Below are positions 7,263 to 45,680 of a stretch of 64,000 nucleotides of DNA, in pieces. Position 1 is the stretch's first letter; each line of letters opens with the position of its first letter. The notes under the pieces are model-generated. The model searched no databases, was not told the origin of the DNA, and worked only from the letters and a program-made list of their open reading frames with translations. Made by a program: the position numbers and the translations under genes. The DNA comes from an uncultured Clostridium sp. (GTDB lineage Bacteria > Bacillota > Clostridia > Christensenellales > CAG-138), in NCBI GenBank assembly GCA_900542285.1, contig UQNF01000003.1:15585-79584 (forward strand). Reading direction: 5' to 3'.

Positions 7263-8282
7263 ATGAAGAACTGCAAAAAACTTATCGCAATCATCGTGAT
7301 TGCAGCGCTTGCAATAAGCAGCGCAGCATCTATCGTGCTGGCAGAGCCTGCATATCCCGAAGTCCCTTCAGGGTATGACGGCTATGTTACCGTATCGGTA
7401 TCCGCTGATACAATCGGATGGGGCTATTTGATAGAACCAACGCTCGTTCCGATACATGAAGGCGAAAGCGTTGCCGAGGCGACCATAAGGCTGTTTGAGG
7501 CCATGGGCGTTGCCTATGAGGCAGGAACGCCGGAGTCATTCTACCTTACCGATGTGGCCTGCGATAACTGTGTTAACGGTGCTGAACCCAACGTTCCGGA
7601 TTACCTTATGGAACAGATAGAGCTTTATCCTGCTTGGGCTGAAGAGAATTTCGGCTTTGCCTATGGCGAATGGACGGGAACCGAAAGCGGAAACGGCATG
7701 CTTGGTACTGATGACTTCAGCACTTTCGGCGGTTGGATGATAGCCGAGGATGATATCGCGCTTCCTGCGACTGCCGGTGATTACAGCGCACAGTCAGGAC
7801 ATGTCTACCAGTGGGCATTCAGCGTATATGGCTGGGGCATGGATCTTGGCTGGAGCGACGGATGGGGTTCGTTCCCTGTTTTCGATAATCCTGCCGAGGG
7901 CGTGAACCGTGCTGATGCCGAGGAAGTCTATGCGCTTATCATGGCGGACGAGGAGCTTGCTGCGCTTGTCTCAGAGGATGGAATGGCATACGATGAGTTT
8001 GAAAGTCTTGTCGCAGCATTGGTCGATCTTTCATCCACTCAGGCTGAGATAGACAGCTGCCTTAATATGCTTCTCAATGCTCTTGATGGCGGTGCCCTGA
8101 TGGGCGATATCAACGGCGATGGTGTCGTTAATATGCAGGATGCTCAGTTAGCTATGCGTTATGCGATCGGCATTGCCGAACTGTCCGATGAGCAGCTGAG
8201 CATTGGCGACATTAACGGCGACGGAATTGTCAATTCATCCGACGCAACAATGATCGCACGCATTGCGCTGAATCTGATTTGA
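7263..8282 (+). CDS. Secreted DUF4430-like (transcobalamin beta-domain-like) protein with C-terminal type I dockerin
   Basis: Signal peptide MKNCKKLIAIIVIAALAISSAASIVLA. The core (VTVSVSADTIGWGYLIEP..., GGWMIAEDD..., ..SGHVYQWAFS) resembles DUF4430. The C-terminus has two DINGDG(V/I)VN..DA calcium-binding repeats, which make a dockerin. Confidence 0.7.
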   Translation: MKNCKKLIAIIVIAALAISSAASIVLAEPAYPEVPSGYDGYVTVSVSADTIGWGYLIEPTLVPIHEGESVAEATIRLFEAMGVAYEAGTPESFYLTDVACDNCVNGAEPNVPDYLMEQIELYPAWAEENFGFAYGEWTGTESGNGMLGTDDFSTFGGWMIAEDDIALPATAGDYSAQSGHVYQWAFSVYGWGMDLGWSDGWGSFPVFDNPAEGVNRADAEEVYALIMADEELAALVSEDGMAYDEFESLVAALVDLSSTQAEIDSCLNMLLNALDGGALMGDINGDGVVNMQDAQLAMRYAIGIAELSDEQLSIGDINGDGIVNSSDATMIARIALNLI

Positions 8283-32929: not shown

Positions 32930-35335
32930 ATGAAGAGAATTATCAGCGTCTTACTGTCCGTCATGCTTCTCATGACTATCGTTCCGGTAGCAGCAGAAAC
33001 AAAAACGGATGCAGACACTCGCCTTATCAATCAGGGCGTACTTGAGATAGATGATGACGGCAGCGACGGCTATTCGGGAGATTATGTCGTTATCTACAAC
33101 CCGAGCACCAGCGCATATTCGGATGTAAGCACCGGCAACATGAGCGGTCTTATCGAAACCGAGATTGGTACATCGCTGATCGGCAGAATGGATGCCGTCA
33201 AGAGCGATAGGCCGTATAGGATTGATATCGATTCAGAGCTTGCAGATAAAAATGAAAAAGCTCCCGAGTTCGCATCCGAAAAATCCATTTCCTTTGAAGT
33301 AGGCGATACGCATGTTTTCAGCATCAATTCAAGCTATTGTCCGCTTCCGAGTACAAGCGTTGAGTTCGAGGTGCTTGCCAAGGGTGAACATTGCTATATT
33401 TGGACCCCGACGTCTACCGCTTCGAATGTATACCCCCTGGACAGCATCGACTCGAGCTTCGGCCAGCTCTGCGCCGATGAGTTCGATTCAAAGTTTGACC
33501 TTATGCAATCCTCCTTCGGCAACCATTCAAACGGAAGTCAGGGCGATGGCAGGCTGAACATACTGTATTACAATATTGATGACGGTTGGACTCCCGGCAA
33601 TGGTTACGTGGCAGGCTTCTTCTCCTCCGCAGATCTGGCAAGCAATGGTATGCCCATTCTGAACATCGATACCTATCCCGGCGTTTATTATGTAACTACT
33701 GATGGCGAAGTCATAGCCGATGTTACGGATACTTACGGTACCATGGTGCACGAATACCAGCATCTCATCAACTATTCGGAGTGCGGCTACAGCGATACAT
33801 GGCTCAATGAATGCATGAGTGCCGCTGCTGAGGAGATCTGTTACCCAGGCAGCAGCATAGCTCCGAGGATCCAGTCTTGGATGAACTATAAGTTCAGCGT
33901 GAACGACGATTGGCTCAATCCTCCTGCAGAGCATGAGTACCAGTCCTCCTGGAGCCTCCACAACGGCTTCTCGATGTATGATTGGAGCAACTGGCTCGAT
34001 ATGTCCGATAGGCTTGCGCTTTATGCCCAGGTATCGCTTTATGCTCAGTACATTTACACCCAGTACGGCAACTCCACCTTCCGCGCGATCCTCGAGAGGC
34101 TTGCAAACGGTCAGGAATTCCAGTATGCGTTCCAGAATGTAACCGGGCAGAGCGCATCCGAATTCACAAGGAATTTCCGTATTGCGCTTACCGCAAATGA
34201 TCCCAACGCTGAGGATGGCATCTATGGCTTCAGTATGCAGGAGGGGTATGATCCTTCACAGTATCATGACGTAGAAAACCTGTATAACTGGCTTTCTCCC
34301 GTTGTGTTCACGGGCAGCTCATGCACAATCTCGGGCGGCGGTGCAATCACCATTAAGCCCGTTGACGGCGTTTACTATCCGCCTGCAGGCGCCGGAAGCT
34401 CGCTTGAGTATTATGGCATCACGCTCGATGCTATTCCGCCTGAACCCGTTCCGCTAACCAACATCAGCATCAACCCCACTTCGGTCAGCGTTTATACCGG
34501 AGCGACCGCAAGGCTGACCGCTGTAAGGGAACCCGAAAACGCCAATAATTATGAGCTGACATGGACTTCTTCCAACAGCAGCGTTGCAACGGTTAGCGGC
34601 AACAACAGGTTTGCAACCGTTACCGGAGTATCTCAGGGTACCGCCACTATCACCTGTACCGCACATGATCTTCTAAATGACCGAACCTATACTTCAACTG
34701 CAGCGGTTACCGTATTGGGCATGCCCACCGTTAACGATGCGCTTAATGTTGAAAACGGCACGCTGGAGTTTACCACAGGCTCAACATATCCTTGGGAAGT
34801 CGTATTCACCGCTGACGGCAGGGTTGCGGCTAAGAGCAGCAACGAGGGCGTTGAAAGCTCGAGCTCAACCATTACTCTAACGGTCAATATGAATGCCGGC
34901 GACACAATGAGCTTCGATTGGAGCGTAAGCAGTGAATCCAACTATGATAAGCTCTTCTTTAAGGTAAACAATGTCGAGCAGTCCAATATCTCCGGCTCCG
35001 TTGCGTGGACCACTGTGTCCTATACGGCGGCAACCACCGGCAGCTACACCTTTACATGGGTCTATAGCAAGGATGGCAGCGTCAATCGTGACGAGGACTG
35101 TGGCTATCTCGACAATGTCAACGTGCCCGGCTATACCGGCGGCAGCGAATATGAGCTTGGCGATGTAAATATGAACGGCAGCGTAGATATGAACGATGTT
35201 ACTCTCGTTATGCGCCATGCTATGGGCCTTATCAGCCTCAGCAGCGAACAGTGTCAGCTTGCGGATTACAACCGTGACGGCAATGTCAATACGGCCGATG
35301 CAGCCGCTATAATGCGTCGTGCAATGGGAATATAA
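32930..35335 (+). CDS. Secreted HExxH zinc metallopeptidase (hyicolysin/M30-like motif context) with Big_2 domain and C-terminal dockerin
   Basis: Signal peptide. TMVHEYQHLINY (HEYQH at 33749-33763). Big_2-like segment ISINPTSVSVYTGATARLTAV...SSNSSVATVS..G.VTGVSQGTATITCTA. Dockerin GDVNMNGSVDMNDV...ADYNRDGNVNTADA. Confidence 0.7.
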   Translation: MKRIISVLLSVMLLMTIVPVAAETKTDADTRLINQGVLEIDDDGSDGYSGDYVVIYNPSTSAYSDVSTGNMSGLIETEIGTSLIGRMDAVKSDRPYRIDIDSELADKNEKAPEFASEKSISFEVGDTHVFSINSSYCPLPSTSVEFEVLAKGEHCYIWTPTSTASNVYPLDSIDSSFGQLCADEFDSKFDLMQSSFGNHSNGSQGDGRLNILYYNIDDGWTPGNGYVAGFFSSADLASNGMPILNIDTYPGVYYVTTDGEVIADVTDTYGTMVHEYQHLINYSECGYSDTWLNECMSAAAEEICYPGSSIAPRIQSWMNYKFSVNDDWLNPPAEHEYQSSWSLHNGFSMYDWSNWLDMSDRLALYAQVSLYAQYIYTQYGNSTFRAILERLANGQEFQYAFQNVTGQSASEFTRNFRIALTANDPNAEDGIYGFSMQEGYDPSQYHDVENLYNWLSPVVFTGSSCTISGGGAITIKPVDGVYYPPAGAGSSLEYYGITLDAIPPEPVPLTNISINPTSVSVYTGATARLTAVREPENANNYELTWTSSNSSVATVSGNNRFATVTGVSQGTATITCTAHDLLNDRTYTSTAAVTVLGMPTVNDALNVENGTLEFTTGSTYPWEVVFTADGRVAAKSSNEGVESSSSTITLTVNMNAGDTMSFDWSVSSESNYDKLFFKVNNVEQSNISGSVAWTTVSYTAATTGSYTFTWVYSKDGSVNRDEDCGYLDNVNVPGYTGGSEYELGDVNMNGSVDMNDVTLVMRHAMGLISLSSEQCQLADYNRDGNVNTADAAAIMRRAMGI

Positions 35336-35411: not shown

Positions 35412-36020
35412 ATGAAGATTATTGTTACCGGGTTTGAACCCTTTGGAAATGAAACAGTCAATCCATCGTGGGAGGCCGTAAAGGCGCTGCCCGATGTTGC
35501 AGCAGGCGTTGAGCTTGTCAAACTGGAGCTGCCCGTGGTCTATGATACCTGCGGATTCCTGATAGGGCAGGCGATAGCCGCGCATGAGCCTGCTGCGGTC
35601 ATGCTCGTGGGTCAGGCAGGCGGAAGATCATGCATTACTCCCGAATTTGTGGCAATAAACCAGCGTGACGGAATTGCCGATAATTCGGGAAAGGCATACA
35701 GCGGAACCAAAATAGCAGACAACGGCCCGGATGCGTTTTTTTCAACGCTTCCGGTAAGAAAGATGGTGGAGCGCATGAACGAAGCAGGCATACCTGCGAA
35801 GATTAGCTATACCGCAGGAACCTATGTCTGCAATAATCTGATGTACGAAGCACTCCGCCTGACGGAAAAGACCGAAACGATATGCGGATTTGTGCATATT
35901 CCGTTTTCTTCGGAGCAAGCGGCAGCGCATGGCGGCTCGTATCCAAGCATGGAAACAGCTTTATGTACTCGGGGACTAATGAAATGCCTTGAGGTGATAA
36001 TAGAGCAGATAAGAGCATAA
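35412..36020 (+). CDS. pcp: Pyroglutamyl-peptidase I
   Basis: MKIIVTGFEPFGNETVNPSW, GQAGGR, SYTAGTYVCN (catalytic Cys), GFVHIP. Confidence 0.93.
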   Translation: MKIIVTGFEPFGNETVNPSWEAVKALPDVAAGVELVKLELPVVYDTCGFLIGQAIAAHEPAAVMLVGQAGGRSCITPEFVAINQRDGIADNSGKAYSGTKIADNGPDAFFSTLPVRKMVERMNEAGIPAKISYTAGTYVCNNLMYEALRLTEKTETICGFVHIPFSSEQAAAHGGSYPSMETALCTRGLMKCLEVIIEQIRA

Positions 36021-36021
36021 C

Positions 36022-36053
36022 AAAAAAGCAGAGGCTCGAAACCTCTGCTTTTA
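36022..36053. terminator. Bidirectional rho-independent terminator (ends pcp and the minus-strand fibre operon)
   Basis: AAAAA-AGCAGAGG-CTCGAAA-CCTCTGCT-TTTT. 8-bp stem flanked by an A-run and a T-run. Confidence 0.85.
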
Positions 36054-36069
36054 ATTTGCTATTTTGCAG

Positions 36070-36297
36070 CTATTTAGCGCACTCATTACCGCTGCGCCTC
36101 CGGTCGGTTTCTTTCCCGTAAAGCCTCATGGCGCAGTCGTGGCAAAGCTGTCCGACGCCTTCCACATAACCCATGCGGAAATCGATGTGCAGGCTTCGGG
36201 GTGTGTTTGTAGGCCGTCCGCACAGAACGCAGGTCTCGTACCTGTCATCATGTTCCGTGGCTTGGCTTGCTTCTATCTTTTCTGCGGCTTTATACAT
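36070..36297 (-). CDS. Small zinc-ribbon protein (function unknown), last ORF before the operon terminator
   Basis: CVLCG...CHDC. ATG 36297 is preceded by GGAG at 8 nt; the upstream ATG 36348 is also possible. No terminator separates it from the preceding gene. Confidence 0.45.
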   Translation of the reverse strand: MYKAAEKIEASQATEHDDRYETCVLCGRPTNTPRSLHIDFRMGYVEGVGQLCHDCAMRLYGKETDRRRSGNECAK

Positions 36298-36367
36298 ATG
36301 TTCATCTCCAATGAATGACGGTGAAGCCGAATGGGTCGGCAGCTTCACCGTCGGGTCTTAGTGTGCT

Positions 36368-37099
36368 TTATTTCTCCACTGAACTGCGTTTTCTGCTCTT
36401 TTTTAGCAGCACTGCGCAGCCTATCACAGCGCCCAATGCGACGAGCACAACGCCGAAATCAAAGCGGCTTGCTTCGCCGGTAGGGGGAGCAGGAGGCGCG
36501 GAGGGTTCCTCTGAGGGCTCCTCTGAGGGCTCAGAGGAAGGTTCCTCGGAAGGCTCAGGAGAGGGTTCGGGAGTTGGGGTTGGAGGAATGAACTCTTCCT
36601 CAACGCTGAACACCCAGGTAATGGTTCCCACTGCGTTCTGGAACTCATCGCCCATTTCAAGAGAGGCATTGAGCGACAGATCGAGCGTGATCTCAGCGCC
36701 GGCGGCGAATTCGCCAAGCAGAACGCCGTAGCCATCATCATCCGCAAGGCCGCCCTGTTCGTTGGCCGGGGCATTGAATATCTCGGATTCGCCGTTATTG
36801 ACCGTTAGGGTGAAATACGAAAGGAATTCCGCATCCGCAGGGTCAACAGGCAGTGCCTTGAGATAGATGCCAACGGTCATATCGCTCGAATTGCGAATCA
36901 GGATCTGCTGCTCGAGAGAATCACCGGGCATAACACCCTTAAAATTGGAGAACAGGTCGGTCGATTCTGGGGTGAATACGAACTCGTTCTCTTCGCCGGT
37001 GAAATCCACGGTCGGAAGCCCATCGGCAAAGGCGTTGGCGCATGCAAGCGCAAGGCAGGCGACAAGCATCAGAGCAACAAGCTTAAATTTTTTTCTCAT
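36368..37099 (-). CDS. TasA/camelysin-like protein with Sec signal peptide, PEPS-rich linker and C-terminal APPTG + TM + basic-tail sorting signal
   Basis: Signal peptide ends ANAFA|DG. FKGVMPGDSLEQQILIRNSSD..VGIYLKA is TasA-like (compare VMPGDTIAKVVKIENTGD in the 40976-41527 product). The C-terminus reads PPAPPTGEASRFDFGVVLVALGAVIGCAVLLKKSRKRS. Confidence 0.65.
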   Translation of the reverse strand: MRKKFKLVALMLVACLALACANAFADGLPTVDFTGEENEFVFTPESTDLFSNFKGVMPGDSLEQQILIRNSSDMTVGIYLKALPVDPADAEFLSYFTLTVNNGESEIFNAPANEQGGLADDDGYGVLLGEFAAGAEITLDLSLNASLEMGDEFQNAVGTITWVFSVEEEFIPPTPTPEPSPEPSEEPSSEPSEEPSEEPSAPPAPPTGEASRFDFGVVLVALGAVIGCAVLLKKSRKRSSVEK

Positions 37100-37101
37100 A
37101 C

Positions 37102-37695
37102 TCAGTTACCTCCTTGTTCCGTCTTGGCGAGTGTGCCATCCGTACAAACTACTACCGGCCATACCGTTTCGACTGTCGAAGTCGGGAGCGACTGGACGGC
37201 GGAGGCGATGACCTGAAGCTCAAAATCGTACTCGTGCTCTCCATCTTTTACGGTACAGCTCTTGATAAGAATGGGAGTGTATTCGTCCGGCTTGATAAAG
37301 GTCTTGCAGTAGTAGAAACCATCAGTACCTTTGAACCAGAATTGATTGAAATCATCTCCCAAAGTGATGTTGCAATCATCGAGGTAAGCAGGCTTTGCGG
37401 CAATATTGCCCTCATCGTCCACCCATGCCGGAACCAGCGCAACGCGGATATACGCAGGAACGTTACCGGTGTTCTTTATTCTGACATTCTGCTTGGTTGT
37501 ACCATTGAACGTCTCATCAACCTGTATGGTAACTTCACCCGGAGTGAACTCGTTTACAACAGGTCCGGGAGTGCTGATAAGCCATGCCAAGCTGCCGGAT
37601 ACGGCCGCACAGGCGAGAATACAGACGCAGAATGCTATCAGAAACGGCTTGATGGACCGTTTGGGCTTGCGCGAATAGGTTTTAATCTGCCTCAT
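37102..37695 (-). CDS. SipW-class signal peptide protein, TasA-like paralog
   Basis: N-terminus ...SGSLAWLISTPGPVVNEFTPGEVTIQVDE, then VRIKNTGNVPAYIRVALV. Its start overlaps the stop of the vWA gene by 14 nt. Confidence 0.7.
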   Translation of the reverse strand: MRQIKTYSRKPKRSIKPFLIAFCVCILACAAVSGSLAWLISTPGPVVNEFTPGEVTIQVDETFNGTTKQNVRIKNTGNVPAYIRVALVPAWVDDEGNIAAKPAYLDDCNITLGDDFNQFWFKGTDGFYYCKTFIKPDEYTPILIKSCTVKDGEHEYDFELQVIASAVQSLPTSTVETVWPVVVCTDGTLAKTEQGGN

Positions 37696-40600
37696 CGGTC
37701 AAGTCCTCCTTTCCGGGGATGATAGCGGGCATTGGGCTGTATTCCGGACTGCCATTGGAGTCAAAGACGTTCGTTGCCACTGCTTCATCGCTGAGCCAGA
37801 ACTCGTTGTTAAGTCTGTTGGTCATTGTGACGATTGCTTCTTCGGGGCTTTCGGCGGGAAGCGTTGCTAAGACGCCATTTTGTTCTTCAACAAGCTCATA
37901 TCTCCAGGACCATTTGGTGTCCTCGCTGACGGTGTAGGTGCCGACAGGAAGGCCTACAATCGTACGGCTGCCTGCACCGACAATGAGAACATTGTAATCG
38001 GCTGGGCTAAGTATAGTGACCCCTTCTTTCGTAGTAAGTCCGGGGTAACTGACCGTGAAGATAAAGCTCTGTTCCGCATCCAGAAGCCGGCTGCCTTCTG
38101 CGATAGCCTTTTTAACCGTCAATGAGCAGGTGTTGACATGCAGTATGAACTTACACGGAACTGCACCTTCTGTACCGAAGTCACAGCCTGAGTGCTCACA
38201 TTCATCATGCACAAAGCTCACATGGCGATCAATATCGGTTTCGCCGATCTTTACCGATACATTGACCGGGATATCATCGGGAACGACGATATAGCCTTTC
38301 TTAATGGCATTCTCGGGCGTTGTGGCATAGTCAAGCTTAAGCGTGGGTGCGCTGCCCTCCATAGTCACCGAACTGTCCACAGTTTCGCCATGCTTCCAAG
38401 CAACGGGCTTATAGTTTGCCGTATAATCCGTATACTGTCCGCCATACCAGACCTCGCTGTCAGCGAAGGTGAGGACGGGCTTAAAGACATTGATTGTGCC
38501 TTCGTCGTAGCCTGACTGCTGAGTTGCAAGAGTCCCGGGTAGGAGATTACCATCTTTGTCATAACCGGTATCGGGCTTAGGCGATACCGTAACGGTGATG
38601 GAATATGTTGTGTCATCGGACAGTTCGTCAATGCCATCTGTGACAGCATGGCCGCTTGCATCCTTGATAACAACGCTTATGTTCACATACTCCGTTTGCC
38701 AGGTTTCAAGACCGTAGTTATTATCTGCCGCTGCCAGATTAAGTGAGACGCCTCCGACGGTGACGGTCGCATCTTCCTTGAGCTGCGCTGCGGTCAGGCC
38801 GTTCAGCAGATATACGTTCTTGTCGCTTGCGGTTACGGAAACTTCGCCAATCGGAACGTTTACCTCGGGACGCTCAAATGTCAACACCGGGTTAATGGCG
38901 CTACTATTCTCGTACACGCCGGCATTCGCATTGGTGTACACATTGTTGCCGCCAAGGAAGCCGGCTTTCGGGCTGACGGTGAATCTTATCACCAGCTTGT
39001 GGCCGTGGTAAGTAACTTCACCGTTATTGGTTACAGTTCCTACATAGTGTTCGGCAAAGTCAAAGTTGGTAACACTAACCTGACTGCCAAATATACTAGC
39101 CGTTGCGCCCATTGGATCATCTTGATTCATCGAATCAACGTTTCTTCTCCATGTGTATTTATTATCGCCGTTCTTACCGATGCAGGCATAGGTCTTAAGC
39201 GTAATATCTTCAGCCGTTGTGCCTTCCGGTAAAGTGAATGCAGGGGCGATGATGTCCCTGATGACGGTATGTTCGCTCAGGGTAGTGGAGGAACCACCGG
39301 TTTCTATCTGTTGGCTGATCTTCTCAAAGATATCGTTGAGAGCATCAGCGTCGCCTGCGGAAAGATAGTAGCTTGGGCTCTGCACATTACCGTTGTTGGA
39401 AGACAGATTCTGCATGAACCAGTTGGCTTTTTGGGTATCGTTTCCGCTTGAGCTACCTGCGCTTGTTGCATCTGCACCATCAAATATACCAACGGTATAA
39501 ACAGTTGCACCATAGGTGCTTTTTGCAGTGCTTCCTTGCGATATGGCAGCATTTCCTACGGTGCTGTTATATCTTCCGGTGCCAGGCAAGCCATCAGTGA
39601 AAACGATTACGACACGATTTCGCTTTGTCCCTTCTTCAATCTTGTTGACATTCAGAATACCGTTTGCCATCTCCATTCCCAGATCAGTGAAGGTTCCGCC
39701 ATATGCGTCCAAAGCTTTAATTGAGTTCGCAATATTGTTTTTCCCTATTGATGTGTTCATGCTTTGCAACGCATTGCTATACTGAGCAATTGCAGAGTTA
39801 CCATAAGTGTATTGTGTAGCACCGACAAATACTTCTGTGTTTTCATATTTGTCTTCATTGTATTCTGTTCCACTTGATGCAAAGCCAACAACTGCAATAC
39901 GGTGATTAACATCGTCTTCCGTTCCCATCTGACCATCCTTGCCCTTTGCTTTCACAGCTACCGCATTGGCAAATGCAGTTACAGCATTCTTCAATGCTTC
40001 AAGGCGAGTGGTTTCCACAGCAGTCCTCAGATATAGTTTATTATGGATTTCTGGAACAGTGTCCGGTCTATCTGATTCATATGAACCTTCTGACCATGAA
40101 TATGTATACTTAAAGTATCCTCTAATAAGGAAAACAGTCCAAATCCAATCCCTGCTTACTGATACCTGAGCATAACTACCATCATCAAGCTTATAAAAGA
40201 GATTATTTTGCTGATAGTAGTAGTCCGAGTTCGTCATATCGAAATAACTATCATATTTATAACTGCTGGTGAAGCTATCAGCCATACTTCCCGACTGGTC
40301 AAGCACCAGAACGATATCGGTGGGGATATACTCCGTAACCTCGGTGATGACCTTTTCACCGGTTGCATAGGCCTCCAGAGTGATGGTATAGGTACCGTCT
40401 CCGTTCGCAACGGCGTTTTTCGTTATCTCCATACCGCTGTCACCATTTCCGCTGCCCGTATCGTCGCCGGATACGGATGCGCCGCGAGTGGGCGAGCCGC
40501 AAACCGGGTCGAGCAGGGGAGCGACATTGGTGAAGTTGACAGTTGTATAAACATACTCAAGGTCGCCATCCTCTTCGGCGGCGGCGATAAGCTCGTTTAT

Positions 40601-40936
40601 ATGCTCTTCAAGCGCGGCATACTGCTCCTCGGTGAGAGAATCGATAAATGCGCTCAGCTGTTCGTCGGTGAGCCCTTCAAGCAGCGCGTGAGCCTCCGCA
40701 AAGGTCGCGGCTGCCATAAGGTCATTGTACAGTGCGGCATAATCGGGAGCTTCCACCGGGGTATCGGTATCGGACGGAGCGGGAGTTACTGACGGTGCAG
40801 AGGTTGGACTGCCCGAATTCGCTTGGCTGCCCATATTGGCGATGCCGCCTTCGTTCAGCGCGACAATGGCTGAGCCCATGGGCGTAATAAGGCATAAGCA
40901 GAGAAGCAGTGACAATAGCCCTTTAAGTATCTTCAT
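37682..40936 (-). CDS. Large secreted vWA (MIDAS) domain protein, adhesin-like, no recognisable cell-wall anchor
   Basis: 1084 aa. Signal peptide. DIVLVLDQSGSM (DxSxS at 40286-40300) and VVIVFTDGLPG. C-terminal beta-rich modules (e.g. GTYTVSEDTKWSWRYEL). Ends ...GKEDLTDEAD with no LPxTG or TM segment. Confidence 0.8.
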   Translation of the reverse strand: MKILKGLLSLLLCLCLITPMGSAIVALNEGGIANMGSQANSGSPTSAPSVTPAPSDTDTPVEAPDYAALYNDLMAAATFAEAHALLEGLTDEQLSAFIDSLTEEQYAALEEHINELIAAAEEDGDLEYVYTTVNFTNVAPLLDPVCGSPTRGASVSGDDTGSGNGDSGMEITKNAVANGDGTYTITLEAYATGEKVITEVTEYIPTDIVLVLDQSGSMADSFTSSYKYDSYFDMTNSDYYYQQNNLFYKLDDGSYAQVSVSRDWIWTVFLIRGYFKYTYSWSEGSYESDRPDTVPEIHNKLYLRTAVETTRLEALKNAVTAFANAVAVKAKGKDGQMGTEDDVNHRIAVVGFASSGTEYNEDKYENTEVFVGATQYTYGNSAIAQYSNALQSMNTSIGKNNIANSIKALDAYGGTFTDLGMEMANGILNVNKIEEGTKRNRVVIVFTDGLPGTGRYNSTVGNAAISQGSTAKSTYGATVYTVGIFDGADATSAGSSSGNDTQKANWFMQNLSSNNGNVQSPSYYLSAGDADALNDIFEKISQQIETGGSSTTLSEHTVIRDIIAPAFTLPEGTTAEDITLKTYACIGKNGDNKYTWRRNVDSMNQDDPMGATASIFGSQVSVTNFDFAEHYVGTVTNNGEVTYHGHKLVIRFTVSPKAGFLGGNNVYTNANAGVYENSSAINPVLTFERPEVNVPIGEVSVTASDKNVYLLNGLTAAQLKEDATVTVGGVSLNLAAADNNYGLETWQTEYVNISVVIKDASGHAVTDGIDELSDDTTYSITVTVSPKPDTGYDKDGNLLPGTLATQQSGYDEGTINVFKPVLTFADSEVWYGGQYTDYTANYKPVAWKHGETVDSSVTMEGSAPTLKLDYATTPENAIKKGYIVVPDDIPVNVSVKIGETDIDRHVSFVHDECEHSGCDFGTEGAVPCKFILHVNTCSLTVKKAIAEGSRLLDAEQSFIFTVSYPGLTTKEGVTILSPADYNVLIVGAGSRTIVGLPVGTYTVSEDTKWSWRYELVEEQNGVLATLPAESPEEAIVTMTNRLNNEFWLSDEAVATNVFDSNGSPEYSPMPAIIPGKEDLTDEAD

Positions 40937-40975
40937 GTGCTATACCTCCTTTTCTAAAGATTTTTTGTGAAATGC

Positions 40976-41527
40976 TCACTCTGCGGGCCAGCCCTGCGCA
41001 GCCAGAACGGTTGCGCCGTTGTTTGCATACTGTACAGCCTCTGCGTCAACATCGATGCTCAGAACCGCATCCATATAGGAGTTGCCAAGGCTGATGTCGA
41101 ATGCTACGCTTGAGAACAGCTCGTTGGTGAAGGCACCGCCGTCAACGGGGCTGTTGTAGTAATAGTAGCCGTCCGAATAGGTCCAATCGGTGGTGTTGTA
41201 ATCAAGGGTGATGTCGTCGGTTGACAGCGCCTGCTGGTTGGCATCGGTGCAGCTCATGGTGACCTTTACACGGATCCATGCGGTATTGTCGCCGGTGTTC
41301 TCAATCTTAACGACCTTTGCGATGGTGTCGCCGGGCATAACACCGGTCTGATCCACAAAGGGATCGCCGTTTTCGTCGGTCTCATGGATAGCTATCCCGA
41401 GATTGCCGGCGGTTATCTGATTGTTTGCAGTATCCTGCGCGGTGAAGTAGGCGAGGGAGCCGAGCGCAAGGATGGATACGCAGGCGATAATTGCCGCAAG
41501 AATCGTAATCTTCTTCTTGATATTCAT
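40976..41527 (-). CDS. TasA/camelysin (peptidase M73-like) family protein with SipW-class signal peptide
   Basis: ...LGSLAYFTAQDTANNQITAGNLGIAIHE..., GVMPGDTIAKVVKIENTGDNTAWIRVKV. Confidence 0.8.
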   Translation of the reverse strand: MNIKKKITILAAIIACVSILALGSLAYFTAQDTANNQITAGNLGIAIHETDENGDPFVDQTGVMPGDTIAKVVKIENTGDNTAWIRVKVTMSCTDANQQALSTDDITLDYNTTDWTYSDGYYYYNSPVDGGAFTNELFSSVAFDISLGNSYMDAVLSIDVDAEAVQYANNGATVLAAQGWPAE

Positions 41528-41646
41528 ATTCTTTGCCTTTCTTTTTTAATTTATTTGCTATTTGCGGCTTTTGTGCCGCTGCTCACATATACCGCCACCC
41601 CGGCCGCTTTTGCGGCCAGGGCAACGTTAGTGAGGTGGAGGGATTA

Positions 41647-42426
41647 TTAAGCCCAGGGATTTGCGGGAAGACCGGAAGCGGCGAATGCTGCTTCTGCACT
41701 ATCAAAACCGGCAGCCTGAACAGCCTGAACGAATACAGGAATCTCTACGCCTTCGGAGAGATCGTAGTTAATGACTTCAGGACCGTTGCCCCAATCTACT
41801 GTGTAGACGGGATTATTAGTGACTGAATCAATGTGCATATCAACAGTCTTGTCAAGGTAGAATCCGATGTATGCAGGAGTTGCGGTAACTACATCTTTTT
41901 CAAGAGCGGTAGTATAGGTGCGGCTATAGATTTTGTATTCAACGTCATTAATTACTACTTGGTTGGCAACAACTATCTCATCAGTCCACTGGCCTTCTGC
42001 GCAGGAATCTCCGTTAAAGTTCCAATGAAGGACATCATAGCGAGGTGCGTTGGGGGTCTGACCATTCTGAAGAGCGGTAGGAACAGCAACAAAGATGCGT
42101 ACATATGCATCAGATTCGCCGGTGTTCTTGATGGTCATGATTTTATCAACATAGTTCTCGGCAGTGGGAAGTGTAACACCACCAACAGTTTCCTGTTCGC
42201 CCTGTGCGGAACCAACGATAGGCATCAGAACCTTATTCTGTTCAAAGGGTACAAGTGCAGAGCTGTCTGCGTTTCTCTGCCGCTCGATAAGCTGAACCTT
42301 AACTCCGCCAACGGTGAAAACATTGGTTTCTTGATCGGTAGCGGTGAAATAAGCGATGGACATGCCGACGATGGTGACGGCAAGAACGGCAACGGCGAGG
42401 CCGATTGCGAGTAGTTTCTTCTTCAT
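41647..42426 (-). CDS. SipW-class signal peptide protein, TasA-like paralog
   Basis: ...GMSIAYFTATDQETNVFTVGGVKVQLIE..., IMTIKNTGESDAYVRIFVAV. Confidence 0.75.
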   Translation of the reverse strand: MKKKLLAIGLAVAVLAVTIVGMSIAYFTATDQETNVFTVGGVKVQLIERQRNADSSALVPFEQNKVLMPIVGSAQGEQETVGGVTLPTAENYVDKIMTIKNTGESDAYVRIFVAVPTALQNGQTPNAPRYDVLHWNFNGDSCAEGQWTDEIVVANQVVINDVEYKIYSRTYTTALEKDVVTATPAYIGFYLDKTVDMHIDSVTNNPVYTVDWGNGPEVINYDLSEGVEIPVFVQAVQAAGFDSAEAAFAASGLPANPWA

Positions 42427-42495
42427 AAAACAAATTCTCCTTAATAATTTATTGTTTTTGTTTCTTTGTTAGTTGGTTGCTGCGTGATCGATAAA

Positions 42496-43137
42496 TCACT
42501 GAGCATTATATGCTGCCCATGCTGCTTCCGGAGTTTGGAAGCCATCAGCCTGGATAGCGTAAGCATTGACGGTGATGGTCATGCCTTCAATCGTCCTAAG
42601 CTGTGCATTATTGATGGTACCGGGAACGGTGATGCTGTCGAACAGAGCATCGAGTGCTACATCTGCAGTAGGAGCAGCAACGGTTTCCTTATACCAGAAC
42701 TCATAGGTGCGGGTATTTGCTGAGGCATCCTCGGTGTTGCCCTTGCAGATCCAATTTGTACTATCGTAGCCTTTGAAAATACTAGTTAGATCTGCGCCAG
42801 TGGGAGCAAAGATAGCGTCAAGCTCACGAGATTTACTGAAGGTGACGGTCATCTTGATGTAGGAGCTTTCGCTGCCGCTCAAAACGGTGACTGTCGGATC
42901 CTTGGTGTAGGTGTGTCCGGGAATAAGCTTGTAGCTGTTAGCCTTGACACGATCAGCATCTTGCACTGGTGTACCATCAAGATTCACTTTAGCTTCGTCA
43001 AGCTTGATCTGTACGTTACCGACGGTGAAGGTGTTGACAACTCTGTCGGTGCTTGTCAGGTAGGCAAGCGTCATACCTACTGCAAAGGCGCAAACCAGCA
43101 CCATTGCAACTGACATGATTAGAAGTTTCTTCTTCAT
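42496..43137 (-). CDS. SipW-class signal peptide protein, TasA-like paralog
   Basis: MKKKLLIMSVAMVLVCAFAVGMTLAYLTSTDRVVNTFTVGNVQIKLDE. ATG 43137 follows GGAAAGGAAG; the track ORF to 43176 is an extension. Confidence 0.75.
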   Translation of the reverse strand: MKKKLLIMSVAMVLVCAFAVGMTLAYLTSTDRVVNTFTVGNVQIKLDEAKVNLDGTPVQDADRVKANSYKLIPGHTYTKDPTVTVLSGSESSYIKMTVTFSKSRELDAIFAPTGADLTSIFKGYDSTNWICKGNTEDASANTRTYEFWYKETVAAPTADVALDALFDSITVPGTINNAQLRTIEGMTITVNAYAIQADGFQTPEAAWAAYNAQ

Positions 43138-43188
43138 GTTCTTCCTTTCCGGGCGCGCTCTGCGGCGCCCATGCATTATATATGGGAT

Positions 43189-43797
43189 TTATATTAAGCC
43201 CGAAGGCTCTTCCCCGGAATTGGTTGATTCGGCGCCGTCCCTGACGCCGCGCTTTTTGCTCTTGTCCATGCCCTTGATAATATCGGGTACGAACAGAAGC
43301 AGGACGAGCACCACCGCGCCGCAAATCCCGACATACATGCCGGGCGGCGAGGAGAGATAATTGGAAACATATCCAAGATAGGGGATGGAGAACACGGGAC
43401 GGCCGAGAAGATTCTTAAAATAAACCGGCTTACCGTCCGGCGCATCGTTTGCATCGCCCTTGGTGTAGAAAAGCTCGTTCTCCGCATCGATATCGATAAC
43501 ACGGTGAGTGGCGATGACAAGGTCTTCGTTCAGAACGAAGGTTATCGGGTCGCCGACCCTTATCTGCTCCGCGGGAACACCCTTAACATATATGAGTGAA
43601 CCGACATGATATGTCGGCTCCATACTGCCGCTGAGTACGCAGAATGGGCGCAGGCCAAACAGCCTGACGCCGGCCAGAAGTACCGCAATCAGCACCACGA
43701 CACATGTTAGAATGGTTGTGAATACGTTCAGAACAATTTGAACAGGGCTCTTCTTTTCTTTATTCTTTTTTTTCTTTATGTCTGTATCTTGCTCCAT
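43189..43797 (-). CDS. sipW: SipW-type (ER/archaeal-type, S26B) signal peptidase I
   Basis: N-terminal TM helix, SGSMEP (catalytic Ser), ATHRVIDI (His), YTKGDAND, and a C-terminal TM helix. Confidence 0.88.
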   Translation of the reverse strand: MEQDTDIKKKKNKEKKSPVQIVLNVFTTILTCVVVLIAVLLAGVRLFGLRPFCVLSGSMEPTYHVGSLIYVKGVPAEQIRVGDPITFVLNEDLVIATHRVIDIDAENELFYTKGDANDAPDGKPVYFKNLLGRPVFSIPYLGYVSNYLSSPPGMYVGICGAVVLVLLLFVPDIIKGMDKSKKRGVRDGAESTNSGEEPSGLI

Positions 43798-43910
43798 GAT
43801 ACCAAGCTCCTTACTGCCTACTGGGTGATAAATCAGGCAAATATTGGCAGTATTACGATTAACACATGTATACTTGCGCGTCTATCCAATATATCTTACG
43901 CCGAGTTGTG

Positions 43911-43930
43911 CATAAAAGTACACTTTTATG
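43911..43930. repeat. Left hix-like recombination site (palindromic half-sites, core AC)
   Basis: CATAAAAGT-AC-ACTTTTATG: perfect 9-bp inverted half-sites around a non-palindromic AC core. Confidence 0.6.
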
Positions 43931-44056
43931 TATTGACGAACAATGGATAGGTGTAGTATAATTCCGCTGAAAACAGCCGGGAGACGAGTTAAAAACTGGA
44001 CTGTTTTCCACCGTTAAGGTGAATTTGCGTGTGCCGAAGTGTTGTGCATAAAAGTG
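43921..44056. other. Putative 136-bp invertible promoter segment (between the two core dinucleotides)
   Basis: Bounded by a perfect 13-bp inverted repeat: GTACACTTTTATG (43918-43930) and CATAAAAGTGTAC (44047-44059). It contains the only strong promoter in the sipW-recombinase intergenic region. Confidence 0.6.
43933..43962 (+). promoter_or_regulatory. Near-consensus sigma-70 promoter inside the invertible segment, currently pointing away from sipW
   Basis: TTGACG (43933-43938), 18-nt spacer, TATAAT (43957-43962) on the + strand. Confidence 0.65.
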
Positions 44057-44066
44057 TACCTTTTTG
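44047..44066. repeat. Right hix-like recombination site (core GT, the reverse complement of the left core)
   Basis: CATAAAAGT-GT-ACCTTTTTG. Its reverse complement, CAAAAAGGT-AC-ACTTTTATG, aligns with the left site. Confidence 0.6.
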
Positions 44067-44101
44067 CACAAAGCAAAAATATATTTTAATTTTTCACCGC
44101 C

Positions 44102-44707
44102 TCAATCAAACGTTCCGTACTCTCTTAGCCATTTATAGAGCAGAGAACGGCTTATTCCAAGGCTTTCGGCGACCTCTGTGCTGGTACAGCCACGCTTCTT
44201 CCACTGCGCCGCTATCTCGTCGAATCCTTCTGGCTTCGGTATGCTTTCCCTGCCAAGCTTCACTCCTCGAAGCTTCGCAGCGGCAATTCCCTCTGCCTGA
44301 CGCTTGCGAATGTTTTCGCGTTCTGTCTGAGCGACATAGCTCAATATCTGCAAAACGAGATTCGATATGAATACGCCGGTCAGATCCTTATCACGCTGAC
44401 GCGTATCCAACAATGGCATGTCCAGAACAACTATATCTGCTTGTTTTTCCGATGTAATTATCTTCCATTGCTCGATAATCTCCTCATAGTTTCGTCCAAG
44501 CCTGTCGATAGAAAGTATGAATACCGCATCTCCGCTTCGGAGGCGGCGCATCATGCGCTTGTACTGCGGCCGTAAAAAATCCTTACCGCTCTGCTTGTCG
44601 ATGTAGATCATTTCCTTCTCGATACCGGCCTCGTGCATCGCAAGAAGCTGGCGTGATTCATTCTGTTCCTTGGTCGAAACCCGAATGTACCCATAGTTTT
44701 TGTTCAT
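44102..44707 (-). CDS. Small serine recombinase (resolvase/invertase family) with C-terminal HTH
   Basis: 201 aa. YGYIRVSTKEQNESRQ (catalytic Ser), ILSIDRLGRN, C-terminal HTH GCTSTEVAESLGISRSLLYKWL. Strong RBS AGGAGGAA. Confidence 0.9.
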   Translation of the reverse strand: MNKNYGYIRVSTKEQNESRQLLAMHEAGIEKEMIYIDKQSGKDFLRPQYKRMMRRLRSGDAVFILSIDRLGRNYEEIIEQWKIITSEKQADIVVLDMPLLDTRQRDKDLTGVFISNLVLQILSYVAQTERENIRKRQAEGIAAAKLRGVKLGRESIPKPEGFDEIAAQWKKRGCTSTEVAESLGISRSLLYKWLREYGTFD

Positions 44708-44989
44708 TGTGAAATTCCTCCTGGTTCTGCTTTTGTGATGTGATGATAAAAACGCAGTGTGATGCAGCGTTTATATTACTAAGCATAACATGGCTGTTGT
44801 ATAATTCATCCATTCAGGCCAATTTCATATATAAAGCAGAAGCGAACTGCAAAGTGGGAGAAAATACACGAATCGACAGAATTCGGAATAGCATTGAAAT
44901 TGTCTTGCTGTATTTGCCGGAATATGGAAGAATTATCGAGGTGCAGCAGCGATGGTGAATCGAATCGGCCCCAAATGCTGTTATATGTA

Positions 44990-45017
44990 ATAAAAAGCAG
45001 AGGCGCTTAACCTCTGC
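44990..45017 (-). terminator. Rho-independent terminator after trkA
   Basis: The minus strand reads GGCAGAGGTTAAGCGCCTCTGCTTTTT. 7-bp stem GCAGAGG/CCTCTGC. Confidence 0.75.
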
Positions 45018-45035
45018 CAAAATATAGTAATATGA

Positions 45036-45680
45036 TTATCCAATCAGTTTCTTGAAGGCGTCATTTCCGCCAAGAACGATGATATGATCGTCCGGGTTAA
45101 ACATATAGTTGGCGTCTGCAGCAATAAGCTTGCCTTCGGGAGTTTTTGCCGCAACAACATTAACTCCGTAGCGTTTGCGGACATCGATAATCTGAATGGT
45201 CTTTCCAAACCATTTGGATGGCGCGCGCAGCTCGAACATCGCATATTCATCCGACAGCATAAAATAGTCAAAGACCGAGTCATTGCTTATGGTTTTTGCA
45301 AGCCTTTGAGCCATATCCTTTTCGGGGAATACTATCTTATCTGCTCCGTTCTTGAGAAAGAACTTCGCCTGAACCTCCGTCGAAGCTATCGCAATAACAT
45401 AGGGACAGCCAAGCTCCTTGAGAAGGTCAACGATTTGGAGACTGTCCTGAAAGTCCTCCGGTATGCAGACTATCGCTGCGTCAAATTCATCAACGCCGAA
45501 TGTCATAAGGACGTCACGGCGCGTACAATCGCCGATTTTTGCACTGGACACATATTCAACAAGATCTGAGACCTTATTTTCACTTTCGTCCACCAGCATT
45601 ATTTCACATCCGGCATTATACAGATAGCGGCAAATGAAATGGCCGAATTTACCTGCGCCGATCACCAAAAATGATTTCAT
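45036..45680 (-). CDS. trkA: Trk/Ktr potassium uptake system NAD-binding subunit
   Basis: MKSFLVIGAGKFGHF Rossmann motif, plus a C-terminal TrkA-C domain. Confidence 0.88.
   Translation of the reverse strand: MKSFLVIGAGKFGHFICRYLYNAGCEIMLVDESENKVSDLVEYVSSAKIGDCTRRDVLMTFGVDEFDAAIVCIPEDFQDSLQIVDLLKELGCPYVIAIASTEVQAKFFLKNGADKIVFPEKDMAQRLAKTISNDSVFDYFMLSDEYAMFELRAPSKWFGKTIQIIDVRKRYGVNVVAAKTPEGKLIAADANYMFNPDDHIIVLGGNDAFKKLIG

Follow-up and report, generated by a model that had tools for sequence, protein, structure and literature searches.

We analyzed a 64,000-nucleotide stretch of DNA from an uncultured Clostridium sp. (the window, numbered from its first letter) and found that it carries a real seven-gene operon on its minus strand, between positions 43797 and 36368, which most likely builds a cell-wall-anchored fiber of TasA/BsaA-type subunits with a large adhesin. 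The operon encodes a SipW-class signal peptidase, four TasA/BsaA-like paralogs (A, B, C, and D), a large von Willebrand factor A (vWA) protein, and a TasA-like protein that ends in a sorting signal (G7), and it lies downstream of an invertible promoter switch. Rather than a new kind of machine, the locus is an enlarged, phase-variable version of the known SipW/BsaA/TasA fiber systems, related to the bsa system of Clostridium perfringens; that it makes a phase-variable surface fiber of this kind by the mechanism proposed below is, in our judgment, rather likely. The genes, in order of transcription, and the terminator are as follows:

43189..43797, minus strand: sipW-class signal peptidase I of the endoplasmic reticulum (ER)/archaeal type, 202 residues (TIGR02228)
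42496..43137, minus strand: TasA/BsaA-like paralog A, 213 residues (TIGR04088, 25 bits, cut-off 19; hhalign)
41647..42426, minus strand: TasA/BsaA-like paralog B, 259 residues (TIGR04088, 21.2 bits)
40976..41527, minus strand: TasA/BsaA-like paralog C, 183 residues (PF12389, TIGR04088, TIGR04090)
37682..40936, minus strand: putative vWA adhesin with a metal-ion-dependent adhesion site (MIDAS), 1084 residues, with beta-rich C-terminal domains (PF00092, 34.6 bits; AlphaFold2 and Foldseek)
37102..37695, minus strand: TasA/BsaA-like paralog D, 197 residues (TIGR04090, 37.9 bits; hhalign)
36368..37099, minus strand: TasA-like protein G7, predicted to be wall-anchored, 243 residues (hhalign, AlphaFold2/Foldseek, sorting signal)
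36024..36052, no strand assigned: bidirectional stem-loop terminator that closes the operon, a 13-pair stem followed by a T-run on the minus strand

An earlier note on this DNA, made from the sequence alone and referred to here as the original prediction, had claimed seven co-oriented open reading frames (ORFs), and the ORF list of the window contains all seven, consecutively on the minus strand and at exactly those coordinates. The intergenic gaps from sipW to G7 are, in order, 51, 69, 119, 39, -14, and 2 nt, the negative value reflecting a 14-nt overlap between the start of paralog D and the stop of the vWA gene. The good ribosome-binding sites (RBSs) credited to these genes are clear at six of the seven starts, which carry AGGAG-type sites (AAGGAG before sipW and paralog B, GAAAGGAAG before paralog A, AAAGGAGG before the vWA gene and paralog D, and AAGGAGG before G7), but paralog C starts behind a weaker GAAAGG. 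For paralog A, gene callers choose a longer start at 43176; because an RBS precedes only 43137, the latter, which the original prediction had already chosen, is the better start.

Related loci were collected from one genome per species by a scan with a profile of the vWA family, which found 130 loci, 80 of which were kept. These 80 loci span Oscillospiraceae, Lachnospiraceae, Peptococcaceae, Christensenellaceae, Faecalibacterium, Erysipelotrichaceae, Coriobacteriia, and other groups. The neighborhood survey, which had been proposed as a check, indicated that the gene set recurs across species: 55 of the 80 loci combine SipW, vWA, D, and G7 with two or more TasA-like genes, and 49 loci show the complete order SipW, TasA-like genes, vWA, D, G7, with further versions cut by contig ends. 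Oscillospiraceae, Lachnospiraceae, Peptococcaceae, Christensenellaceae, and Faecalibacterium are among the groups in which the complete order is found. In this recurring order, two to five TasA-like genes stand between SipW and vWA. Adjacency is kept between vWA and D at 70 loci and between D and G7 at 68, with gaps of at most 21 nt. The locus is present in 109 blocks of a public assembly index, and Cuneatibacter caecimuris DSM 29486 (locus L065) is a cultured carrier of the operon.

The product of the first gene belongs to the SipW class, as had been proposed. It is an ER/archaeal-type signal peptidase I co-located with TasA-like genes, it scored 105.3 bits with TIGR02228 (cut-off 51.85), and it carries the motifs SGSMEP, THRV, and GDAND together with one N-terminal and one C-terminal membrane segment; its 99 bits with the Bacillus SipW equivalog model fall under the cut-off of 190 set for that model.

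The four paralogs share the N-terminal signature [ST][LI]A[YW][FL][TI]...N.[FI]T.G.[VL].[IV].[LIV].E, with a spacer of 6-7 residues rather than the 4-5 first described, and the later NTG...[YW][IV]R[VI] strand that had been attributed to all four occurs in its exact form only in B, C, and D. Profile searches with the TasA/M73, SipW-cognate, and VWA models, also proposed beforehand, support the TasA-like assignment. The model of SipW-cognate signals (TIGR04088, cut-off 19) matched A, B, and C, the last with 35.1 bits; it gave no match to D, though the same motif is present there (SLAWLI...N.FT.G). PF12389 (Peptidase_M73, TasA/CalY; cut-off 22.5) scored C at 35.8 bits and B at 19, below the threshold. 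With the BsaA family model TIGR04090 (cut-off 60), C reached 53.9 bits (E 2e-14) and D 37.9 bits (E 1.6e-9), both under the curated cut-off, and A and B did not match. Judged by these profile scores, C and D are relatives of BsaA and not members by NCBI's TIGR04090 threshold. Family alignments of A, B, C, D, and G7 built from the 80 related loci were then compared as profiles: A, B, C, and D are mutually homologous (hhalign probability 99.3-99.9%; A against B, C, and D, 99.6-99.9%). The signature and the profile matches are far above chance, and TIGR04088, PF12389, and hhalign agree with the proposal that the paralogs are SipW substrates of the TasA/BsaA family. A sequence search of paralog C against PDB chains returned nothing useful, and the same was true of the vWA protein.

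The signature region resembles the donor strand of BsaA, a subunit encoded in the Clostridium perfringens operon sipW-bsaA-bsaB-bsaC-bsaR-bsaS-bsaD, which has srtB upstream (Obana 2020, PMC7395162; Melville-lab preprint, PMC11580942). In BsaA, residues 28-38 form the donor strand; V33 and F37 of this strand are buried, and E56 assists in the cross-linking of N35 to K74 (PMC11580942). Paralog A has a SipW-type signal, predicted to be cut between TLA and YLT, and a candidate donor strand V33-x-N35-x-F37 whose residues carry the same numbering as those of BsaA (compared with PMC11580942); the candidate strand of D is V46-x-N48-x-F50, and the motif N-x-[FI] is N35/F37 in B and N36/I38 in C. In all four paralogs, a conserved Glu follows 13 residues past the Asn and a conserved Lys stands ahead of the I.NTG strand. 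For A, N35, E48, and K79 are shared by at least 80% of 110 homologs; the corresponding triad candidates are N35, E48, and K95 in B and N36, E49, and K71 in C. For each of the four paralogs, though not for G7, at least 80% of the homologs keep the Asn, Glu, and Lys, and the Glu and Lys may be the catalytic Glu and acceptor Lys of an isopeptide lock.

G7 begins with an ordinary AxA signal peptide, and a Pro/Glu/Ser linker connects its TasA-like core to a C-terminal sorting signal that reads APPTG-EASRFDFG-VVLVALGAVIGCAVLL-KKSRKRS, ending in a hydrophobic stretch and a basic tail. The fifth TasA-like protein with a normal Sec signal and a sorting signal, as it had been described, was borne out: its family aligned with that of paralog C at 98% hhalign probability (E 3e-13, 100 columns). 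The AlphaFold2 model (mean predicted local distance difference test score, pLDDT, 73.9) is a beta-sandwich, for which Foldseek gave TasA (5of1) the highest TM-scores (0.36/0.43) at probability 1.00, but ranked it only fifth by E-value; weaker matches included a Sulfolobus thread subunit and PapA. Because the Foldseek result is weak, the TasA-like assignment of G7 rests mainly on hhalign. The conserved donor Asn is absent from G7, and a Gln replaces the acceptor Lys.

P-x-T-G is invariant or nearly so in 28 G7 homologs (PPQTG, LPQTG, LPETG, PPKTG, and others), some of which NCBI names 'LPXTG cell wall anchor domain-containing protein', and one carries PF00746. Judging from this conservation, the C-terminus of G7 is a sortase-type signal across the family, and since the signal is conserved, a sortase is probably used for anchoring. 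In six related loci, a Pfam-confirmed sortase lies directly downstream of the G7 homolog. The description of the locus as lacking sortase-type pilins therefore applies to the shaft candidates, which are not sortase pilins, but not to the base protein, a predicted sortase substrate. Long G7 homologs of about 400-450 residues (L004, L012, L014, L019, L029, L041-L044, and others) carry an extra 'GNWQVxExxIPKGY' CnaB/SpaA-like domain, and their sorting signal is a proline-less variant in which LIQTGQLNWP precedes a membrane segment and KKRK.

The MIDAS of the vWA protein is complete (D213-x-S215-x-S217, as DQSGS, with T415 and D448 invariant in the family), and the C-terminus of the protein carries no sorting signal. 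The protein belongs to a large family: over 7100 database entries match with E-values under 1e-3, and each of the top 120 has a length of about 1000 residues. In the AlphaFold2 model (pLDDT 64.8), a short helical region at the N-terminus is followed by a vWA domain that contains a beta-rich insert and by a long series of beta-domains; the top PDB matches of the model in Foldseek were the sortase-pilus tip adhesins SpaC (6m48, E 2.3e-19) and GBS104 (3txa, E 5.9e-9), followed by PilB, a vWA-bearing type IV minor pilin. Near their C-termini, homologs carry DUF5979, DUF7601, or SpaA-like domains. The structural matches and the homolog domains thus point to a vWA/MIDAS tip adhesin with an immunoglobulin (Ig)-like stalk, in agreement with the earlier view of a tip-adhesin-like protein without LPxTG. 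Comparison of the vWA family profile with the five TasA-like families gave similarity in the signal peptide only and no TasA-like domain. The extreme C-terminal tail has the consensus W-LNGFS.VV.N[IV]FG, with an invariant Asn, and falls below pLDDT 50 in the monomer model.

A second conserved unstructured segment, 'TVNFTNVAP' around residue 130, was considered as a donor strand but not adopted; its register differs from N.FT.G, and in many species it belongs to a separate small secreted protein. Residues 1-150 (window 40487-40936) comprise a signal peptide, an acidic stretch, a helical bundle, and the conserved 'NFTNVAP'. These first ~150 residues are encoded as a separate small secreted protein just upstream in L005, L007, L011, L013, L014, L016, L022, and others, and in those split loci the ~1000-residue vWA gene product has its own signal peptide; in the Faecalibacterium locus L064, a TasA-like domain is fused ahead of the NFTNV motif. 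Two distant vWA homologs, L078 and L083, have no D and G7 neighbors, end in their own membrane segment and basic tail, and are without the conserved W-LNGFS.VV.NIFG tail; L010 keeps a variant of the tail without these neighbors, so the correlation is imperfect.

Within one species, strains with flanks of 98% DNA identity show very different degrees of divergence among the proteins of the operon. Identity is 100% for SipW, 96.7% for C, 96.3% for G7, 92.3% for B, and 87.2% for A, and it drops to 82.4% for D and 67.1% for the vWA protein. That the vWA protein and D are the most divergent fits an exposed tip and its adapter under diversifying selection, and the divergence of the vWA protein looks like allelic replacement or diversifying selection on an adhesin. 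About 1.9 kb at the center of the vWA gene (window 38347-40282) is essentially unalignable by blastn with L001 and L003.

Upstream of sipW, we found a small serine recombinase gene beside inverted repeats that bracket a promoter:

44102..44707, minus strand: serine recombinase of the resolvase/invertase type, 201 residues, directly upstream of the switch (PF00239, 102 bits)
44047..44071, no strand assigned: distal inverted repeat, 25-nt arm
43933..43962, plus strand: near-consensus sigma-70 promoter within the segment, TTGACG-18-TATAAT, 11 of 12 consensus positions
43906..43930, no strand assigned: proximal inverted repeat, 25-nt arm

The recombinase has a C-terminal helix-turn-helix and a weak match to the Mpi-family master invertase, and its gene ends 31 nt from the distal repeat. 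The two arms are 92% complementary and 116 nt apart, which makes an invertible segment of 166 bp, and by eye each repeat site is itself a near-palindrome around GTAC. The promoter, the only near-consensus one of the region, is directed away from the operon in the window (the OFF orientation); a weak promoter-like site on the operon strand lies outside the repeats. The switch sequence is identical and in the same orientation in four full-length copies, those of the window and of L001-L003. A further contig, L084, runs from sipW into the proximal repeat, matches the window up to 43930, and then continues from 44071 to 44011 (L084 1957-2017), which is the inverted, ON orientation. This junction of 43930 with 44071 keeps the outer half of the repeat, in line with a crossover at the center of the repeat. 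Both promoter orientations occur in nature, the ON orientation being seen in one contig of a related strain.

Inverted repeat pairs of 23-24 nt lie ~81-400 nt upstream of sipW in L065, and such pairs occur in L006 and L050 as well; the L006 repeat (AAAAAGTATACTTTTT) resembles that of the window. A recombinase homolog was detected only in L031. Inversion control may recur in this operon family.

Starting from gene content, homology, conserved order, the sorting signal, the tip-pilin-like fold, and the two promoter orientations, we propose the following mechanism. Inversion of the 166-bp segment by the serine recombinase would turn its strong promoter toward sipW and so drive transcription of all seven genes. 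A, B, C, and D would be exported by Sec and held at the membrane by their SipW-type signal peptides until SipW cuts after the conserved Ala, freeing the N-terminal donor strand V-x-N-x-F, which would then insert into the open beta-sandwich of the adjoining subunit. The conserved Asn, Glu, and Lys may lock this joint by an intermolecular isopeptide bond, as in BsaA. Having no TasA-like acceptor domain, the vWA protein could join the fiber only as a strand donor, and its conserved unstructured C-terminal tail (..VATNVF..) is the candidate donor strand. Paralog D, translationally coupled to the vWA gene and co-varying with it, is the likely adapter, which would place the SpaC-like MIDAS adhesin at the distal end of the fiber. 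Given its ordinary signal peptide, the absence of the conserved donor Asn, the Gln in place of Lys, and the sortase signal, G7 would be the terminal acceptor: it would take the last donor strand and end growth, and a sortase from outside the window would link it to peptidoglycan. We consider this assignment of tip, shaft, and base to the vWA protein, the paralogs, and G7 reasonable.

Several points weigh against it. Polymerization, the order of the subunits, the isopeptide lock, the attachment of the vWA protein, and the use of a sortase are steps that we infer. The Asn-to-Glu spacing is 13 residues in the paralogs and 21 in BsaA, and the likeness of the vWA tail to a donor strand is that of a short motif and statistically not significant. 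No ORF in the 64-kb window has the TLxTC sortase motif, so a sortase encoded elsewhere would be needed. The ON orientation comes from a single metagenome contig of a strain ~93% identical that ends inside the switch. In C. perfringens, moreover, BsaC is a secreted monomer and BsaB is not part of the long BsaA polymers (PMC11580942).

These C. perfringens data also bear on a different reading that we regard as possible though doubtful, in which the product of the operon is a secreted biofilm matrix like that of C. perfringens pellicles or that formed with Bacillus subtilis TasA: one paralog would homopolymerize, the other paralogs and the vWA protein would be accessory, and G7 would serve only as a tether. 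BsaA alone polymerizes, bsaB and bsaC mutants still form polymers, and besides the monomeric BsaC, BsaB was recovered as dimers only (PMC7395162, PMC11580942); the vWA protein of the window is likewise without a recognizable TasA-like domain. BsaB, however, lacks the triad, whereas all four paralogs keep the donor Asn and the Glu and Lys candidates, and the order vWA-D-G7 with its tight coupling is strictly conserved in ~70 species. The vWA protein also has a conserved unstructured tail and, in its model, a tip-pilin fold, and we favor the fiber with tip, shaft, and base.

It is improbable that the upstream repeats are static binding sites or a leftover, with the operon constitutive or read from another promoter and the recombinase serving an unrelated element. 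The identical sequence and single orientation of the four full-length copies would suit such an arrangement, as would the weak promoter-like site outside the repeats, but the L084 segment is inverted exactly at the repeat with the outer half retained, the sole near-consensus promoter lies inside the segment, and the recombinase gene ends 31 nt from the distal repeat. Least likely by far is a reading without any polymer, in which the TasA-like proteins act as secreted metalloproteases of the camelysin type (Peptidase_M73) or as separate monomeric adhesins that happen to have a signal peptidase in common: the Pfam family name and one member of the 90%-identity cluster of paralog B, named 'CalY family protein' by NCBI, point that way, but the protease reading was rejected on the literature, in which the peptidase label is held to be a likely misidentification of CalY (PMC11580942), TasA, CalY, and BsaA all form filaments, and the N-terminal strand motif matches the BsaA donor strand.

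The original prediction knew of no characterized system with this composition, a claim that is refuted by the C. perfringens bsa operon, by printed multi-paralog operons, and by haloarchaeal tafi. As in the operon of the window, sipW comes first in bsa and is followed by TasA-like paralogs with SipW-type signals; the donor strand is V-x-N-x-F in both; and both include a TasA-like protein with an LPXTG-type signal, encoded by bsaB in most C. perfringens strains (PMC7395162, PMC11580942) and by G7 here. Each operon also encodes a secreted vWA protein, a likeness that consists in the shared vWA domain: BsaC is a 70-kDa protein of unknown role (PMC7395162, PMC11580942), whereas the vWA protein here has 1084 residues and a SpaC-like model. 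The systems differ further in that all four SipW-type paralogs here have Asn/Glu/Lys candidates while only BsaA has the triad there, in the fixed order vWA-D-anchor, and in the sortase gene, which is adjacent there and has no counterpart in this window. Control is by temperature or BsaRS in C. perfringens and by an invertible promoter here. The serine recombinase is the only regulator found beside the operon; no ORF is left in or directly beside it for a two-component system, the flanking ORFs not having been searched for domains of kinases or response regulators. The oligomers that BsaA forms in C. perfringens behave as if attached to the membrane and not to the wall (PMC11580942), which agrees with tethering through an uncleaved signal peptide.

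BsaA/TasA genes elsewhere lie in operons with LPxTG, SpaA, sortase, and signal-peptidase genes and several paralogs, for which heteropolymers have been suggested (PMC11580942), and TasA-CalY heterofilaments have been shown in Bacillus cereus (PMC13082335). The Bacillus systems (tapA-sipW-tasA and, in B. cereus, sipW-tasA/calY/capP) share with the operon a dedicated SipW, TasA-fold subunits that polymerize by donor-strand exchange, and accessory nucleating or anchoring proteins (TapA, CapP), along with the heterofilaments. Unlike the operon, they have no vWA adhesin and no sortase-anchored TasA-like base, TasA is without the Asn for an isopeptide lock, and regulation is by SinR and not by DNA inversion. 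The haloarchaeal tafi model comprises a tip (TafC), an adapter (TafE), a shaft (TafA), an anchor (TafF), and a dedicated signal peptidase (PMC11821415). Compared by description, tafi and the archaeal TasA-like pili and threads (PMC11821415, PMC9245690, PMC9715654) share with our proposal the linear plan of tip, adapter, shaft, and anchor, TasA-like donor-strand subunits, a dedicated signal peptidase I (TafD), and, in Sulfolobus threads, isopeptide bonds; they differ in being archaeal, in Tat export, and in having neither a vWA tip nor a sortase.

Sortase pili such as SpaCBA of Lactobacillus rhamnosus GG and PI-1 of group B Streptococcus likewise have a MIDAS vWA tip adhesin with Ig-like stalk domains, a base that is wall-anchored by sortase, and several subunit types in one operon. 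Instead of LPXTG on all subunits and a pilus sortase, the operon has a sorting signal only on G7 and none on A-D or the vWA protein; the shaft subunits are of another fold, without LPXTG or a pilin motif, and in place of a pilus-specific sortase, polymerization is presumed to proceed by strand exchange after SipW cleavage. The switch resembles the serine-invertase promoters of gut bacteria (Hin/Gin/Mpi type), with a small recombinase beside 25-nt repeats around a strong promoter and both orientations found, and it differs from them in its target, a SipW/TasA-type fiber operon. A bolder and tentative suggestion is that gut Clostridia have a widespread third class of Gram-positive pilus, represented by this operon: a phase-variable, covalently locked heteropolymer of the TasA/BsaA fold, gated by SipW, capped through D by a SpaC-like vWA protein, and fixed by sortase at a non-donating base, with an adhesin that varies between strains.

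The operon type is widespread in gut Clostridia and experimentally untouched, and with thousands of members of the vWA family alone in gut metagenomes, it probably encodes a surface organelle that is common among human gut commensals but has yet to be studied. Should the proposed mechanism be true, it would explain the role of the vWA protein BsaC and of the extra paralogs in the only studied system, sortase would act solely as the terminal anchor of a strand-exchange fiber, and a strain-variable adhesin would switch ON and OFF, which would be relevant to colonization and immune evasion. The cultured C. caecimuris carrier makes the model testable.

Some features near the operon stand apart from these questions. 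An Rfam scan of 36000-45100 found no family and hence no riboswitch. Between G7 and the terminator (window 36070-36348, minus strand) lies a small Cys-rich, zinc-ribbon-like ORF with the pattern CxxC...CxxC, 74-92 residues long, to which Pfam gave no match; it is annotated as a gene in L001-L003, and in L058 and L065 a homolog lies after the operon. Farther out, two regions on the plus strand (window 32930-35335 and 7263-8282) encode large secreted proteins that end in dockerin-like repeats, and a homolog of the first has Big_2 and Dockerin_1 domains; they hint that the organism also has a surface system of the cellulosome or amylosome type.

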